IMG/VR virus record: IMGVR_UViG_2654587772_000002
Length of the DNA: 64,000 nt
Reading direction: 5' to 3' (one strand)
Source of the DNA: a virus
Taxonomy: Duplodnaviria; Heunggongvirae; Uroviricota; Caudoviricetes
The notes beneath the pieces are model-generated. The model saw only the letters and a program-made list of their open reading frames with translations, was not told the origin of the DNA and did not search any database. Shown one piece after another: positions 32,692 to 40,168 of the stretch (its first letter is position 1; the number at the start of each line of letters is the position of its first letter). The translations under genes and the position numbers were made by a program.

Positions 32692-33885
32692 GTGACCTGG
32701 GACGATCACAAGAAGAATTTTGCTCGCCTGGCGCGAGATGGTGGTTACACCATCGCACAGTATGCCGCCGAGTTTAATCTTAACCCTAATACCGCACGTC
32801 GTTATCTCCGTGCCTTCAAAGAAGACACCAGGACTGCGGACAGCCGCAAGCCAAATAAGCCAGTCAGGAAGCCACTAAAAGGCATGATCATTGATCACTC
32901 TAATGATCAACATGCAGGTGATCATATTGCGGCTGAAATAGCGGAAAAACAGAGAGTTAATGCCGTTGTCAGTGCCGCAGTCGAGAATGCGAAGCGCCAA
33001 AATAAGCGCATAAATGATCGTTCAGATGATCATGACGTGATCACCCGCGCCCACCGGACCTTACGTGATCGCCTGGAACGCGACACCCTGGATGATGATG
33101 GTGAACGCTTTGAATTCGAAGCTGGCGATTACCTGATAGATAACGTTGAAGCGCGGAAGGCCGCGCGCGCTATGTTGCGTCGGTCCGGGGCCGATGTTCT
33201 GGAAACCACTCTTCTTGAAAAGTCTCTTTCTCATCTCCTTATGCTGGAGAACGCCAGGGATACGTGTATTCGTCTGGTGCAGGAAATGCGCGATCAGCAA
33301 AAAGACGATGATGAAGGGACTCCGCCTGAATATCGTATCGCGAGCATGCTAAACAGCTGTTCCGCGCAGATAAGCAGCCTGATCAACACCATTTACAGCA
33401 TCCGGAATAACTATCGAAAAGAAAGCCGGGAGGCGGAAAAGCACGCTTTATCTATGGGGCAAGCTGGCATTGTTAAGCTGGCATACGAACGAAAGCGTGA
33501 AAATAACTGGTCAGTGCTGGAAGCAGCTGAATTCATCGAGGCGCATGGCGGAAAAGTGCCGCCCCTGATGCTGGAGCAAATCAAAGCCGATCTGCGTGCT
33601 CCTAAGACCAATACCGATGATGAGGAAAGGCAAACAGCCGTCGGTGGCCCTTCTCTTGAAGATCTGGACAAAGTTGCGCGAGAACGGGCTGCCAACCGCC
33701 GCGCCGATGCCGCATTGTGGATTGAGCAGCGTAGGGAAGAAATCGCCGATATCGTTGATACAGGCGGTTATGGAGATGTTGATACTGAAGGTGTATCAAA
33801 CGACCCATGGCTGGAACAAGACCTGGACGAAGACGAGGAGGAAGACGAAGAAGTTACCCGCAAGCTATACGGGGATGATGATTAA
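32692..33885 (+). CDS. pacA: Pacase (terminase) small/recognition subunit PacA
   Basis: 397 aa; contains pac hexamer clusters; GTG start with AAGGAAG SD. Confidence 0.8.
32885..33071 (+). other. pac site: two clusters of TGATCA(N) hexamers (4 + 3-4) about 95 bp apart, inside pacA
   Basis: TGATCA at 32885, 32892, 32904, 32919 and 33015, 33027, 33038, 33066. Confidence 0.75.
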
Positions 33886-35369
33886 TGGCCAGAAGTTGCG
33901 TAACGGATCCACGTTGGCGCGAGCTGGTGGCGCTATATCGTTATGACTGGATTGCTGCCGCTGATGTTTTGTTCGGCAAAACACCTACCTGGCAGCAGGA
34001 TCTGATTATTGAGTCTGTGCAGGAACAGGGTAGCAAGACATCTGTTTCGTCTGGTCACGGTACCGGGAAATCAGACATGACTTCTATCATGATCATGTTG
34101 TTCATAATCATGTATCCCGGTGCCCGCGCCATTATCGTTGCGAACAAAATTCAGCAGGTAATGACCGGTATATTCAAGTACATCAAGATAAACTGGGCTA
34201 CTGCCACCAGCCGTTTTCCATGGCTTGCTGATTATTTTGTTCTGACAGAAACCGCTTTCTATGAGGTTACTGGTAAAGGTGTATGGACTGTAGTACCGAA
34301 GGGCTTTCGTCTGGGAAGTGAAGAAGCTCTCGCCGGTGAACACGCAGATCATCTTCTGTATATTATCGATGAAGCCTCCGGTGTCAGTGATAGAGCTTTC
34401 GGTATCATCACTGGTGCTCTTACCGGACAGGATAACCGCATCTTATTACTGTCACAGCCTACACGCCCAAGCGGCTATTTCTACGATACTCACCATAAAC
34501 TGGCCAAGCGTCCTGGTAACCCTGATGGCGTTTATACGGCGATCACGCTTAACAGTGAGGAATCACCGCTGGTAACGCCAGCATTTATCAAAATGAAGCT
34601 GGCGGAGTACGGCGGGCGTGATAACCCTATGTACATGATTAAGGTACGCGGACTATTCCCTAAATCACAGGATGGCTTCCTTCTTGGACGTGATGAGGTT
34701 GAACGTGCGACGCGGCGGAAAGTCAAGATTGCCAAAGGATGGGGCTGGCTTGCATGTGTGGACGTTGCTGGTGGTACAGGACGGGATAAGTCCGTTATCA
34801 ATATCATGATGGTGTCCGGCCAGCGAAATAAACGCCGTGTAATCAACTATCGAATGCTGGAATACACAGACGTTACAGAAACGCAGCTTGCCGCCAAAAT
34901 TTTCGCAGAATGTAATCCTGAGCGATTCCCAAATATCACCATAGCGATAGACGGCGATGGGCTGGGTAAAGCAACGGCGGATCTGATGTACGAGTATTAT
35001 GGTATTACCGTACAGCGCATACGCTGGGGTAAAAAGATGCATAGCCGTGAAGATAAGAGCCTGTACTTTGATAAACGTGCTTATGCCAACGTTCAAGCCG
35101 CAGAGGCCGTAAAATCTGGTCGTATGAGACTGGATAAGGGTAATGAAACTATTGAGGAAGCGTCGAAAATCCCTGTAGGGATTAACTCCGCAGGTCAATG
35201 GAAGGTGATGAGTAAGGAGGATATGAAGAAAAAACTCAACCTGCACTCACCAGACCATTGGGATACATATTGTTTCGCTATGCTGGCGGATTATGTTCCC
35301 CAGGACGAAGTGCTTAGCGTCGAAGACGAAGCGCAGGTTGATGAAGCTCTGGCATGGCTTAATGAATGA
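33885..35369 (+). CDS. pacB: Pacase (terminase) large subunit PacB
   Basis: 494 aa; ATPase and nuclease regions; start overlaps pacA stop. Confidence 0.8.
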
Positions 35370-35372
35370 ATA

Positions 35373-35389
35373 CTTGCTCTAATAAATTG
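35373..35389 (+). promoter_or_regulatory. C1-operator-like site CTTGCTCTAATAAATTG (15/17)
   Basis: Immediately 3' of pacB. Confidence 0.45.
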
Positions 35390-35520
35390 TGTTTTTTAAC
35401 TGCCGATGTTACATTGAGCCTGACCTCTTGCGCCTTGAGGCATTTTCGGTTTATGCTTATCAGGCACCTCAGTAAAACGGGTGCCGGGATTGAGACCCCG
35501 GATAATGCAAAAGGCGACAC

Positions 35521-35548
35521 AGACGCCAAAAGCGTCTTTTTTTGTGTC
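35521..35548 (+). terminator. Rho-independent terminator (GACGC-CAAAA-GCGTC + T7)
   Basis: Hairpin plus TTTTTTT. Confidence 0.55.
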
Positions 35549-35569
35549 ATGCCATCGCACAGCCATACG

Positions 35570-35720
35570 TAGCGTTTAGCTCAGAGATCAATGGTAGTGC
35601 TGGCTGGGCTGCCGAAAGGCAGGCCGGTTCCCTTTTGCGCCGGTAGTCTCAACCCAGTCAGTGCTACCGCCATTGAGATTGAGACCTCACGCGGTAGCTC
35701 CTTAAATTAGCAAAAGGAGG
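35570..35720 (+). ncRNA. Candidate structured leader/antisense-type RNA upstream of icd-like/ant-like genes (c4-like role speculative)
   Basis: GC-rich inverted repeats (GGTAGTGCTGG / CCAGTCAGTGCTACC), no ORF, lies between terminator and strong SD. Confidence 0.3.
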
Positions 35721-35728
35721 CTGCCATT

Positions 35729-35950
35729 GTGGCTACTATCCCTACCCCAGCTCATCCTGAATTTATCTGGCGCTTTTACTCCTGCCAAAAACGTCACTAT
35801 CACTTCGTTATTGCACCGACAGAAGATGAGGCACGTTCTCAGCTTCCGGATGCTCCCTGTATTTTCTCTGCCCGCTTTTCTACCGATTCGCGCAATTCTC
35901 TCAGTTACTGGTGCCTCCCTGTTAACGCTTCTGCTCAGGAGGGACTATGA
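35729..35950 (+). CDS. Small protein (73 aa) preceding antirepressor gene (icd-like position)
   Basis: AGGAGG SD; GTG start; stop overlaps next start. Confidence 0.4.
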   Translation: MATIPTPAHPEFIWRFYSCQKRHYHFVIAPTEDEARSQLPDAPCIFSARFSTDSRNSLSYWCLPVNASAQEGL

Positions 35951-37049
35951 GAACGTCATTAGTCACCCGTGAAGAGATGATCGAGGCAATTGAACAGCAC
36001 ACTGCCTGTATCAGTACCAGGGATATACCGGGCGTTATTGCCAACTACTTCATGATCACCAAACAACTTTACCGGAGAAAGGACAAATACGCGGTTCACC
36101 GCATTCTGCTAACCGATATCCGTGAATACCTGCTCGAACAGGGTCATCTGAATTACGCAACCGTCGCAGCCGAAGCACGCAAGGAGGCACACAGAATGAA
36201 AGCAACTAACGTTAAATCAGAAAAAATTTATGCACCTTCAGTTCAGGAATCGGAACTGGTGGTTGTTCAGAATCAGCCGGATGAAATTCCCGTTCTGGAA
36301 TGGCAGGGAGTACGTGTCGTGACAACCGAAACTCTTGCTAGAGGGTATGGTGTCGATGAAGCCAATATTCGCAACAATTTGTCTCGCAACCTTGACCGCT
36401 TTGAAGAAGGTAAGCATTACTTTCTTCTAACTGGTTTAAAATTAAGAGAATTTAAGAACAGAGTAACCGGAAGTTACTCTGTTGGTAAGAACGCCAGAAG
36501 CCTTACACTCTGGACAGAGCGCGGCGCTGCACGCATGTCTAAGATCGTGGACACAAATGAAGCATGGGCATTCTTTGAAAAACTGGAAGACAGCTACTTC
36601 CGGCAAAAAGAACAGCAACCGGTTGCAATCCCCCAGACGCTTCCAGAAGCTCTGCGCCTGGCTGCCGAACTGGCTGAACAAAAGAACAGAAAGCCCACCA
36701 GCTAAATCAGCAGCTGGTGGCCGCCGCTCCTAAAGTCGATTTTGCCGACCGGGTATCAGTAGCTAAAGGGATCCTGATTGGGAATTTTGCAAAGGTTGTT
36801 GGACTTAAGCAAAACGCGCTGTTTGCCTGGTTACGGGAGAACGGCATCCTGATAGCGTCCGGTGGACGTAAAAATGTGCCGTTCCAGCAGTACATCAATG
36901 CGGGGTATTTCACGGTGAAAGAAGTGGTGCTGGATGATGAAGATGGCTACCAGATACGGTTGACGCCTCAATTAACGGGTAAAGGCCAGCAGTGGTTGAC
37001 GCGTAAACTGCTCGATGCTGGCTTGTTAAAACCGGTGGCGGCTGAATAA
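35947..37049 (+). pseudogene. Antirepressor-like gene (ORF6N/AntA-like N-domain + KilAC C-domain) split by a frameshift near 36678-36705
   Basis: Frame A ends LAAELAEQKNRKPTS*; C-frame open from 36678 reads TKEQKAHQLNQQLVAAAPKVDFADRV... (KilAC); domains normally fused. Confidence 0.55.
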
Positions 37050-37081
37050 TGGAAGAATGCCCGGTTGATGCCGGGCATAAT

Positions 37082-37933
37082 TTATTGCGCGCTTTCGGGG
37101 TTGTCGTTTACTGGCTGCCCCTTCTTGGTTTTACGGCTGCGCGTAACTGATGCGGCTGACTTAACCTTTTTCTCTTCGCGAGTGATGGCAATTTGTTTTT
37201 TTACATTTTCAATATCTGCCAGGCGATATATTTTTGCTTGCGGCCAGCGGTCGCAGATGATCGGTTCTATAGAGTCATAAAGGCTAAATTTTGCTTTCTC
37301 GAATTCACCGTTGATGATGATTCCATCACGGAGAGTTTCATCGCAGATAAACACGCCACACAGCGGTACATGGTAACTAACTGATTTACCATCATTGTAG
37401 TTAGGGCTACTGGAGATGTAGTGGACGCGCAGCATTGTTTCGCTAAAGCCGTGTACACGCATACGGAATTTTTCATCCTCCGGGTACTGCCTCATTAGCT
37501 CTTTTGTTGCTTCCAGGTTCTCTATGTATTTCGCACTGTGCTCATTGATCCCCGCGCTTTTTTGGATGCGAATGTCCTTATCAATCAGATGAATAATGCG
37601 GCCAGCGGTCATGTTGACGCTGTTCACAGCTTCTGTCTGATAAGTTGTAACCTTGCGCACACCGCGAAGGATGTTAGGCACTGGATATAAAATAGTCTTT
37701 GGGATATTGAGGTCTGGGTACTGTTCCAGTTCCCGCGCCATTAAAGTCCATTTATCAATTTCAGCCTGAATGCTGTCAGTTTCTTTGAACGGTAGAACGA
37801 CAACCGGGCGTACAGGACGACCGTCGCTGGCTGTATCAACGTGTTGGGCGCGTGCAACAGCTTTTTTTAGAAAGAGATCCCTGAAGCTGACGAACTCCTG
37901 GTACAGTTGTTCGCCGTAGACATAATTTATCAT
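37082..37933 (-). CDS. c1: C1 repressor of lytic functions
   Basis: 283 aa, position next to coi/loxP/cre, genome-wide cognate operators. Confidence 0.85.
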   Translation of the reverse strand: MINYVYGEQLYQEFVSFRDLFLKKAVARAQHVDTASDGRPVRPVVVLPFKETDSIQAEIDKWTLMARELEQYPDLNIPKTILYPVPNILRGVRKVTTYQTEAVNSVNMTAGRIIHLIDKDIRIQKSAGINEHSAKYIENLEATKELMRQYPEDEKFRMRVHGFSETMLRVHYISSSPNYNDGKSVSYHVPLCGVFICDETLRDGIIINGEFEKAKFSLYDSIEPIICDRWPQAKIYRLADIENVKKQIAITREEKKVKSAASVTRSRKTKKGQPVNDNPESAQ

Positions 37934-38027: not shown

Positions 38028-38044
38028 AGATTTATTAGTGCATT
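38028..38044 (-). promoter_or_regulatory. C1-operator-like site (14/17) between coi and c1
   Basis: AATGCACTAATAAATCT on minus strand. Confidence 0.4.
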
Positions 38045-38253
38045 TATTGTGAGTCCAACTGGTTAGTTGCCATGAGATATTCGATTGTGTCAGTGAGGTC
38101 ATCCAGGTCGTCTTGGGTGATGCGGTACTCCTGATTGGATATCTTTGAGTAGTGTTCAGCAATGGCGCGGGCAGCGTCGGTTTCGGCAGGGTCTACAGAT
38201 AAAGCGTTAGAGCAATGTCTAACGTCGTCGATGGTTGGTTGAATGAAAGCCAT
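38044..38253 (-). CDS. coi: C1 inactivator Coi
   Basis: 69 aa ORF directly upstream of c1 on the same strand. Confidence 0.7.
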   Translation of the reverse strand: MAFIQPTIDDVRHCSNALSVDPAETDAARAIAEHYSKISNQEYRITQDDLDDLTDTIEYLMATNQLDSQ

Positions 38254-38508: not shown

Positions 38509-38574
38509 TGTCAAACAACTATGAAAAACAATCCAGTTTTTGGCTGGTGGAGTGGGATTTTTCTCTCAAAATTT

Positions 38575-38591
38575 ATTGCTCTAATAATTCT
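38575..38591 (+). promoter_or_regulatory. C1 operator ATTGCTCTAATAATTCT (15/17)
   Basis: Inverted relative to 38492 site. Confidence 0.5.
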
Positions 38592-38634
38592 TGATTTTTA
38601 TGCGCAGCTGGACGTAAACTCCTCTTCAGACCTA

Positions 38635-38668
38635 ATAACTTCGTATAGCATACATTATACGAAGTTAT
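38635..38668 (+). other. loxP recombination site
   Basis: Exact ATAACTTCGTATA-GCATACAT-TATACGAAGTTAT. Confidence 0.98.
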
Positions 38669-38740
38669 ATTAAGGGTTATTGAATATGATCAATTTACCT
38701 GTAAATCCATACAGTTCAATACCTTGGCAGGTCAAATAGT

Positions 38741-38828
38741 GATCACTTGATCATTTGATCAAGGTTGCGCTACGTAAAATCTGTGAAAAATTGGCGGTGT
38801 TAGTCCTACAGATTTCGCGTAGCGCACT
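38741..38828 (+). promoter_or_regulatory. cre upstream regulatory region: three tandem GATC sites (TGATCACTTGATCATTTGATCA) and an 18-bp imperfect inverted repeat
   Basis: GATC triplet 38741-38765; inverted repeat GCGCTACGTAAAATCTGT / ACAGATTTCGCGTAGCGC. Confidence 0.5.
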
Positions 38829-38857
38829 TAGCACCACCAATCAATCAGAGGTGAAAA

Positions 38858-39079
38858 ATGGGATATTCAACTGCTAAAGTGTCCACTCATCTTGAGCTTG
38901 AGAAAAACCGTGGTTACTGGCGGGCAAAAGGGTTTGATCGTGATAGTTGCCAACTGTCATTATCGCGCGGTGAAGAAAAAATAGAACGCACGCGCGGTCG
39001 CTGGCGTTTCTATGACGAGAACCATAAACAGGTAAAGGCAGAGCCGATCCTGTACACTTTACTTAAAACCATTATCTGA
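38858..39079 (+). CDS. Small basic ORF (73 aa) immediately upstream of cre
   Basis: SD GAGGTG; coding status uncertain. Confidence 0.3.
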   Translation: MGYSTAKVSTHLELEKNRGYWRAKGFDRDSCQLSLSRGEEKIERTRGRWRFYDENHKQVKAEPILYTLLKTII

Positions 39080-39086
39080 GTGTTAA

Positions 39087-40118
39087 ATGTCCAATTTACT
39101 GACCGTACACCAAAATTTGCCTGCATTACCGGTCGATGCAACGAGTGATGAGGTTCGCAAGAATCTGATGGACATGTTCAGGGATCGCCAGGCGTTTTCT
39201 GAGCATACTTGGAAAATGCTTCTGTCCGTTTGCCGGTCGTGGGCGGCATGGTGCAAGTTGAATAACCGGAAGTGGTTTCCCGCAGAACCTGAAGATGTTC
39301 GCGATTATCTTCTATATCTTCAGGCGCGCGGTCTGGCAGTGAAAACTATCCAGCAACATTTGGGCCAGCTAAATATGCTTCATCGTCGGTCCGGGCTGCC
39401 ACGACCAAGTGACAGCAATGCTGTTTCACTGGTCATGCGACGGATCCGAAAAGAAAACGTTGATGCCGGTGAGCGTGCAAAACAGGCGCTGGCGTTCGAA
39501 CGCACTGATTTCGACCAGGTTCGTTCACTCATGGAAAATAGCGATCGCTGCCAGGATATACGTAATCTGGCATTTCTGGGGATTGCTTATAACACCCTGT
39601 TACGTATAGCCGAAATTTCCAGGATCAGAGTTAAAGATATCTCACGTACTGACGGTGGGAGAATGTTAATCCATATTGGCAGAACGAAAACGCTGGTTAG
39701 CACCGCTGGTGTAGAGAAGGCACTTAGTCTGGGGGTAACTAAACTGGTTGAGCGATGGATTTCTGTCTCTGGTGTGGCTGATGATCCGAATAACTACTTG
39801 TTTTGCCGTGTCAGAAAAAATGGTGTTGCCGCGCCATCTGCCACCAGCCAGCTATCAACTCGCGCCCTGGAAGGGATTTTTGAAGCAACTCACCGATTGA
39901 TTTACGGGGCTAAGGATGACTCTGGCCAGAGGTACCTGGCCTGGTCTGGACACAGTGCCCGTGTCGGAGCCGCGCGAGATATGGCCCGCGCCGGAGTTTC
40001 AATACCGGAGATCATGCAAGCTGGTGGCTGGACCAACGTAAATATTGTCATGAACTATATCCGTAACCTGGATAGTGAAACAGGGGCAATGGTGCGCCTG
40101 CTGGAAGATGGCGATTAG
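39087..40118 (+). CDS. cre: Cre tyrosine recombinase
   Basis: 343-aa sequence MSNLLTVHQNLPALPVDATSDEVRKNLMDMFRDRQAFSEHTWKMLLSVCRSWAAWCKL... matches Cre. Confidence 0.98.
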   Translation: MSNLLTVHQNLPALPVDATSDEVRKNLMDMFRDRQAFSEHTWKMLLSVCRSWAAWCKLNNRKWFPAEPEDVRDYLLYLQARGLAVKTIQQHLGQLNMLHRRSGLPRPSDSNAVSLVMRRIRKENVDAGERAKQALAFERTDFDQVRSLMENSDRCQDIRNLAFLGIAYNTLLRIAEISRIRVKDISRTDGGRMLIHIGRTKTLVSTAGVEKALSLGVTKLVERWISVSGVADDPNNYLFCRVRKNGVAAPSATSQLSTRALEGIFEATHRLIYGAKDDSGQRYLAWSGHSARVGAARDMARAGVSIPEIMQAGGWTNVNIVMNYIRNLDSETGAMVRLLEDGD

Positions 40119-40168
40119 CCATTAACGCGTAAATGATTGTTCTAATTCTTTGATATTTATGGTGACAT

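Follow-up and report, generated by a model that had tools for sequence, protein, structure and literature searches.

A probable second immI-type immunity operon, with its antirepressor gene disabled, in the pacB-c1 interval of a P1-like phage-plasmid

We analysed a 64,000-nucleotide (nt) stretch of viral DNA (IMG/VR record IMGVR_UViG_2654587772_000002; hereafter the window), which is a P1-like (Punavirus) phage-plasmid of Escherichia coli sequence type 2747 (ST2747), and found that the insert separating its genes pacB and c1 is very probably a second, heterospecific immunity operon of the immI type whose antirepressor gene, ant, is disabled. The gap between the two genes measures 1,712 bp in the window versus 24 bp in reference P1, which thus does not have the region at this site. 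Judged by its sequence, the insert is homologous in the strict sense to the immI operon of P1 and P7, not loosely analogous to it, and has the same parts: a C1 operator-like site, two promoter-like elements, a1/b1 target sites, a terminator-like hairpin, the c4 antisense RNA gene, a2/b2 target sites lying over the icd Shine-Dalgarno (SD) sequence, icd itself and ant. A preliminary description of the window, made from its letters, had placed an antirepressor module of about 1.7 kb next to immC (35370-37081) and had likened it loosely to the c4-icd-ant layout of immI; the module was confirmed, and the likeness turned out to be stronger than had been claimed. Sequence and comparisons establish which parts are present, that c4 and its targets are complementary and covary, that b2 overlaps the ribosome-binding site, that icd and ant overlap, and that ant is truncated; we infer the dynamics proposed below from P1/P7 immI.

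Central to this identification is the c4 gene. The structured, GC-rich sequence of the preliminary description proved to be this gene (35587-35674) plus an isrK-type leader that carries a1/b1, and the c4 segment scored well above the Rfam gathering threshold (Table 1). Its predicted fold (-46.4 kcal/mol, z = -5.6 against shuffled sequences) agrees at minimum free energy with the Rfam C4 model, with a long closing stem and two internal hairpins, and GCCA closes the 3' side of this stem, as would be expected of an RNase P substrate. The Rfam E-values (6e-14 and 5e-11) and Pfam E-values (1e-18 and 4e-31) of the features of the insert place them far above chance level. The a' and b' segments of c4 pair perfectly, over 7 + 8 nt, with a1/b1 upstream and a2/b2 downstream alike. 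Complementarity between the structured RNA and the downstream ribosome-binding site, which had been put forward as something to look for, was found in the pairing of b' with b2, since b2 (35710-35717) overlaps the icd SD sequence AAGGAGG (35714-35720). A 39-amino-acid (aa) open reading frame (ORF) within the c4 gene (35591-35710, plus strand) matches Pfam PF10554 Phage_ASH at 29 bits, and the NCBI Prokaryotic Genome Annotation Pipeline (PGAP) calls an ORF over c4 'ash family protein' (WP_071527722.1) in many plasmids; translated c4/CI-type RNA genes are probably among the members of the Phage_ASH family, and the match is spurious here.

For covariation, the comparison set comprised 79 loci with close Icd relatives from IMG/VR plus P1, D6, JL22, RCS47 and 673R5, and its loci carry L numbers (L011, L030, L052, L060 and so on; L009 is the immI region of the ST2747 record CP007393, and L001 the phage JL22 record). 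Eleven a'/b' combinations were present, and in all of them a1, a2, b1 and b2 changed in step with c4. Pairs were counted in the D6-type clade alone (20 distinct leaders), the P1-type clade being covered by a direct complementarity search. Every one of the 42 pairs (27 internal to c4 and 15 between c4 and target) was standard in 20/20 D6-clade leaders, which held for a2/b2 and for a1/b1, and double-sided (compensatory) changes had occurred at 16 of them (9/27 c4-internal and 7/15 c4-target), whereas sliding the partners by 1-3 columns as a control reduced pairing to 28-50%. The pacB-c1 site itself, represented by IMG/VR loci L011-L073 (flanked by pacB, c1 or both), has five c4 specificity types, always with matching targets; they are combinations of a' GUCUCAA, GUUCCAA or AGGCCAA with b' CCUUUUGC, CCUUUGAC or CCUUGGAC, a pattern that suggests that a and b determinants are exchanged as modules.

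The 73-aa ORF with an AGGAGG SD sequence that had been noted downstream (35729-35950) is icd. Besides its similarity to P1 Icd (Table 1), the product scores 49.8 bits with NCBIfam NF033153 phage_ICD_like (cut-off 25), while a Pfam search with it matched no family, and its start codon lies 8 nt past the SD sequence. Among the 79 IMG/VR loci icd is intact at 73 aa in 78, the remaining one being cut by the end of its contig, and it is intact at every locus where ant is broken. In the leader alignment the start codon is GTG in the window and in JL22 and ATG in most relatives (ATTATG or AATATG); a GTG start may lower translation of icd and ant. The ant ATG overlaps the icd stop codon as ATGA (35947-35950), and both this overlap and a nested Ant2 start at an 83-codon offset are shared with P1/P7 immI.

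How such an operon would work can be drawn from P1 immI as described by Citron & Schuster 1990 and Riedel et al. 1993 (cited in PMC8201110). Transcription would start from a C1-controlled promoter and a constitutive promoter, and the c4 RNA would be excised from the operon transcript. Its a' and b' segments would then pair with a2 and b2 of its own mRNA, as well as of any incoming mRNA of the same type, masking the icd ribosome-binding site and blocking icd translation; ant would in turn be off because it is translationally coupled to icd, and also through polarity. Where c4 was insufficient or mismatched, Ant would be made and would bind and inactivate the C1 repressor, leading to lytic growth.

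Upstream of c4, the putative C1 operator stands directly 3' of the pacB stop codon and, in alignment with annotated P1, is the counterpart of Oc4/Op51. C1 operator-like 17-mers are far in excess in the window (15 observed versus 0.33 expected by chance), and the 15 sites, spread over 3494-59529 with one pair at 8039-8066, fit the dispersed C1 regulon of P1. Two promoter-like elements follow the P1 arrangement. A generic promoter scan gave three weak sites elsewhere and neither of these two, which score at most 8/12 and fall below its threshold; the promoter assignment therefore comes from homology alone. The leader itself exceeds the gathering score of the Rfam isrK model, an RNA of two 5' hairpins plus a terminator, and the Rfam c4-a1b1 model gave 22 bits on it, under gathering. 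It ends in the terminator that the preliminary description had pointed out, a hairpin at 35521-35537 followed by a T run.

Table 1. Features of the pacB-c1 insert and its flanking genes (window coordinates).
Feature	Position	Strand	Evidence or remark
pacA	32692-33885		directly before pacB in gene order
pacB	33885-35369		left flank of insert
C1 operator-like 17-mer CTTGCTCTAATAAATTG	35373-35389	+	2 mismatches (15/17) to consensus ATTGCTCTAATAAATTT; aligns with annotated Oc4 of P1
P2c4-like promoter TTGTGT-17-TACATT	35387-35415	+	overlaps operator; alignment to annotated P1 promoter
P1c4-like promoter TTGCGC-18-TATGCT	35428-35457	+	alignment to annotated P1 promoter
isrK-type leader	35464-35542	+	Rfam isrK RF01394, 58.2 bits vs gathering score 50
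a1 target TTGAGAC	35490-35496	+	in hairpin loop of leader
b1 target GCAAAAGG	35507-35514	+	in leader
Intrinsic terminator	35521-35537, then T run (to 35543)	+	terminator search
c4 antisense RNA gene	35587-35674	+	Rfam C4 RF01695, 75 bits vs gathering score 45, model positions 1-87, E = 6e-14
b' segment CCUUUUGC	35631-35638	+	second hairpin loop of c4
a' segment GUCUCAA	35646-35652	+	c4 junction
a2 target TTGAGAC	35679-35685	+	icd leader; perfect complement of a'
b2 target GCAAAAGG	35710-35717	+	icd leader; perfect complement of b'
icd homologue, 73 aa, GTG start	35729-35950	+	81% identity to P1 Icd over 64 aa
ant 5' part, 252 codons	35947-36705	+	ORF6N domain, Pfam E = 1.3e-18, 67.5 bits
Internal in-frame ATG (Ant2 equivalent)	36196	+	AAGGAGG at 36181-36187; 83 codons in, same offset as P1 ant1/ant2
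ant 3' part, -1 frame, KilAC	36678-37049	+	Pfam ANT/KilAC E = 4.3e-31, 107.9 bits; stop codon 37047-37049
10-bp deletion junction (GCAGCTTCTG missing)	36683-36685	+	alignment with intact JL22, RCS47 and 673R5 alleles
9-bp hairpin within ant	36695-36720	+	-16 to -17 kcal/mol, z = -4.1; just 3' of deletion; also in intact alleles
Hairpin between convergent ant and c1	37057-37078		terminator search; -18 kcal/mol, z = -5.0; probably a bidirectional terminator
c1	37082-37933	-	right flank of insert
coi	38044-38253		beyond c1
cre	39087-40118		beyond coi

We then turn to ant, whose two domains, as the preliminary description had correctly seen, lie in different frames, with the KilAC frame open from 36678 and the first frame stopped at 36703. 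ORF6N (PF10543) and KilAC (PF03374) both score above Pfam gathering, in two frames in the window and in one 370-aa ORF in JL22. The split had been taken as a possible two-frame design; alignment with intact alleles instead traced it to a 10-bp deletion in the linker between the two domains, specific to this strain. The truncated Ant stops at residue 252 and ends in ...AELAEQKNRKPTS, the last 6 codons of its reading frame being out of frame, and PGAP calls ant 'frameshifted' in the ST2747 records CP007393 and CP007394. Among complete pacB-c1 modules in IMG/VR, ant is a single ORF of 351-372 aa in 46/49; an exact-pattern scan of the linker in the same database recovered 73 with intact 19-nt spacing and 1 shortened; and 40/40 of the plasmid matches listed span 1,718-1,725 bp against 1,708-1,712 bp of the query, and so keep the extra 10 bp. 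Matches across the deletion junction came from the two ST2747 records only, among 5,426 complete E. coli genomes, and a search of GTDB representative genomes did not find the junction. Being confined to one strain, the deletion is therefore recent, and the split ant is a strain-specific pseudogene produced by an inactivating deletion, not a case of programmed frameshifting.

Several features of the linker could nonetheless be read as a recoding site, at which ribosomes would shift by -1, whether by programme or through useful leakiness, and so express the two-frame ant. The candidate slip is CAA_AAG (36679-36684), 10 nt before the 9-bp hairpin, and it would yield an Ant lacking three linker residues (QLL). 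The frames overlap over 36678-36702, the shift needed is -1, the overlap holds two A_AAG motifs and has a stable hairpin downstream, the linker varies naturally in length (that of P1 is 7 residues shorter), and the unrelated allele L060 has lost a different 10 bp at that spot, with the same outcome for the frame. Yet the 25-nt overlap offers A_AAG motifs only and no canonical X_XXY_YYZ heptamer, the hairpin is plain coding sequence in intact alleles, PGAP labels ant a frameshifted pseudogene, and the linker scan and the listed plasmid matches both gave a single frame (73/74 and 40/40). The rarity of the two-frame state among relatives marks it as a rare mutant rather than a conserved design, and we hold expression by frameshifting to be highly improbable. 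Programmed frameshifting in particular was rejected, the intact alleles of relatives being in one frame.

A deletion seen in an assembly also invites the question of whether the real plasmid has an intact ant, the 10-bp gap having arisen in sequencing or assembly. [quoted passage not shown] PacBio errors, however, are mostly 1-nt insertions or deletions and not 10-nt deletions, which counts against an artefact. The identical deletion turned up in CP007393 and in CP007394, the genomes of two derivative strains that were sequenced separately; this makes random sequencing error, which the preliminary description had allowed for, unlikely, and a similar lesion arose independently in an IMG genome (L060). 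We accordingly consider an artefact very unlikely. A chimeric assembly of two ant paralogues was tried as an explanation and rejected, both flanks of the gap matching the JL22-type allele and not the paralogue.

Losses of ant at this site are not limited to the window. In L060 (IMGVR_UViG_2737471840_000005, about 3960-3990), the sole shortened linker among the 74 in IMG/VR, a different 10-bp deletion (TTCTGGAACA) overlaps the deletion site of the window and causes the same -1 shift with nearly the same truncated tail, in a clearly different allele (its ORF6N part is 73% identical to that of the window) that accompanies a different c4 type. In intact alleles the sites of both deletions map to a short imperfect hairpin, GCUUCUG-GAA-CAGAAAGC, directly adjoining the 9-bp one, and a structural deletion hotspot would be the simplest reading of two deletions at one linker spot. 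Elsewhere, an IS3-family element is inserted after ant codon 3 (L030, 3219-4535), and a 4-nt insertion interrupts ant near codon 36 (L052, about 3320). Taken together, ant is broken in the window and in 3/49 other complete modules, with c4 and icd intact in all; these four events are only a hint that loss of ant with retention of c4-icd is tolerated or favoured.

The same losses, together with promoters that are weak matches, could mean that the module is an inert remnant, with c4 and icd unexpressed and the whole region decaying since ant was lost. Such decay is hard to square with the state of the remaining parts: the 306 bases at 35440-35745 (the a1/b1 leader, c4, a2/b2 and the start of icd) are 100% identical to pHNTH9F11-2, whose ant is intact, icd is preserved as described above at all broken-ant loci, all pairs between c4 and its targets are kept, and the ant deletion, limited to one strain, is recent. 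An inert remnant is in our judgement scarcely probable. As its sequence stands, the window module can make c4 RNA and Icd and no full-length antirepressor, and by analogy with P1/P7 its remaining function is probably the repressing (immunity) half of the circuit, with c4 silencing D6-type icd-ant messages and icd itself still open to repression.

Outside the window, next to kilA, the strain has a canonical immI as well (CP007393, L009 13898-17250), and the specificity of the two copies can be compared. The resident c4 has a' and b' identical to those of phage P7, and its Ant has 463 aa versus 347 in P1, with an ORF6N domain added; a contig junction just upstream of this resident immI cuts into its promoter region. 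The window c4 is instead of D6 type, with the same a'/b' and the same four targets as D6. Cognate c4 and targets form 15/15 pairs, whereas the window c4 forms 7/15 with the resident P7-type targets, fewer than the 12/15 between P1 and P7, which are experimentally heteroimmune, and through immI (PMC6906374, which also describes the make-up of immI). The two circuits are therefore predicted to lack cross-talk, and from these sequences the window circuit should be orthogonal to the resident P7-type one. With an Ant already encoded by the resident immI, the proposal that the insert offers a second route to C1 inactivation besides coi did not hold as stated; an intact copy would be a third route, and it is disabled here.

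Set beside known systems, the insert resembles P1/P7 immI and the c4-icd-antirepressor region of D6. It differs from P1/P7 immI in its place, immI lying between sim and kilA-repL and the window copy between pacB and c1, in its determinants (a'/b' GUCUCAA/CCUUUUGC in the window, CUGUCAA/UCACUAAC in P1 and CUGCUAA/UCACAAUC in P7), and in its Ant, which has ORF6N as its middle domain and is truncated by the 10-bp deletion. With D6 (a plasmid prophage, MF356679) the leader, c4 and icd start are 95.7% identical over 328 nt, although D6 belongs to another phage-plasmid lineage, has ref upstream and pmgF downstream, and encodes a different gene as its downstream antirepressor, the 313-aa Rha/Roi/KilA-like orf82. 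Locus and gene content are shared with the pacB-c1 'ant' insert known from RCS47, pTZ20_1P and JL22 and from several hundred P1-like plasmids, and the window insert is 98.3% identical to that of JL22, 94.5% to RCS47 and 87.9% to 673R5; those plasmid copies differ in having an intact ant of about 370 aa, and RCS47 and 673R5 in having other c4 specificities.

Two further systems resemble parts of the operon. Gifsy-1 of Salmonella has isrK-STnc1160-orf45-anrP, like the insert an arrangement of a leader passing the isrK model, a terminated leader RNA, a processed RNA, a small ORF and a coupled regulator; in Gifsy-1, IsrK, the short RNA, acts in trans to activate translation of the long transcript, and AnrP is an antiterminator-type regulator (PMC4825925). 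The immunity system of phage P4 (CI RNA, seqA/seqC), cited as a structural homologue in the same paper, likewise uses a processed leader RNA that pairs with two flanking sites and shuts off downstream genes; CI, however, terminates transcription of replication genes and there is no icd/ant.

Some points weigh against reading the insert as a second immI-type operon that works as in P1. Both promoters are weak matches recognised solely through alignment with P1, expression of the window copy is predicted from its parts, and c4 processing, Rho-dependent polarity and binding of Ant to C1 are all carried over from P1. The isrK-type leader may, by analogy with Gifsy-1, add a layer of positive control that the simple P1 model does not have. 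As to the protein, identity between the intact JL22 Ant (370 aa) and P1 Ant1 is 57% over the whole and about 93% in the KilAC part, and a PDB sequence search with intact Ant gave just chance-level L9 matches; the middle (ORF6N) domain differs from that of P1 Ant1, the target of Ant could thus differ from that of P1 Ant1, and the truncated 252-aa Ant might keep some activity.

The records behind the window bear on how far its gene order can be trusted. The window is identical to CP007393 over 5,983 nt and near-identical to CP007394. The ST2747 genomes come from a parental strain and two derivatives resistant to nitrofurantoin; in these PacBio assemblies about 14 scaffolds per strain were put in order as a single 'chromosome' (PMC3983296), which is why a plasmid prophage is found in chromosome records. 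That ordering followed a reference map, and plasmid segments are ordered differently between the assemblies; CP007393, for example, does not contain window 38543-40145, cre included. The order of distant parts of the window may therefore be an artefact. Three tRNA genes were also detected by Rfam (8725-8875 and 10403-10475), as expected for P1-like phages.

Modules of this kind are common. In PLSDB, 260-309 records carry the module (309 cover at least 80% of the region), and 314 records have an uninterrupted P1-type pacB-c1 junction, so that roughly half of P1-like plasmids have the module. The pacB-c1 insert has been mentioned by Venturini et al., who named RCS47 (PMC6906374); the RCS47 record annotates ant, and PGAP names an Icd-like protein and Ant. 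Published and record annotations of the insert amount to 'hypothetical orfs + ant/Roi', with c4 unrecognised. In the JL22 record a 68-aa ORF is annotated over the promoter and a1/b1 leader (1567-1773), there is no c4 feature, and icd is given in the wrong frame, as an 81-aa TTG ORF (1928-2173) rather than the 73-aa icd. Our literature search, which had much of the older P1 work outside its reach, returned no report in which the insert is recognised as a complete c4-icd-ant operon or its c4 types are given.

Beyond the single locus, we entertain, as a doubtful though not negligible idea, that the pacB-c1 site is a hypervariable 'second lock' of P1-type immunity. The way in which at least five specificities combine three a variants with three b variants is suggestive of recombination and diversifying selection, and copies without ant that keep c4 and icd could persist as c4-only decoys. 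Were they decoys, they would silence the antirepressor that incoming same-type phages encode, D6-type phages from another lineage included; were the site a second lock, the two 10-bp linker deletions would mark a mutational hotspot or a favoured route to disabling ant, and a -1 slip at A_AAG could restore slight Ant activity.

What follows for the window itself is modest: its split antirepressor gene is a pseudogene specific to the strain and not a new expression mechanism. For the family, the insert is a well-understood circuit at a second locus and with different specificities, such that a common insert of P1-like plasmids is a full immunity circuit controlled by an antisense RNA, one that the usual annotation misses and to which it sometimes adds a spurious 'Ash family' ORF. 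P1-like plasmids matter as carriers of resistance genes, and the module bears on their coexistence, superinfection and mutual induction.

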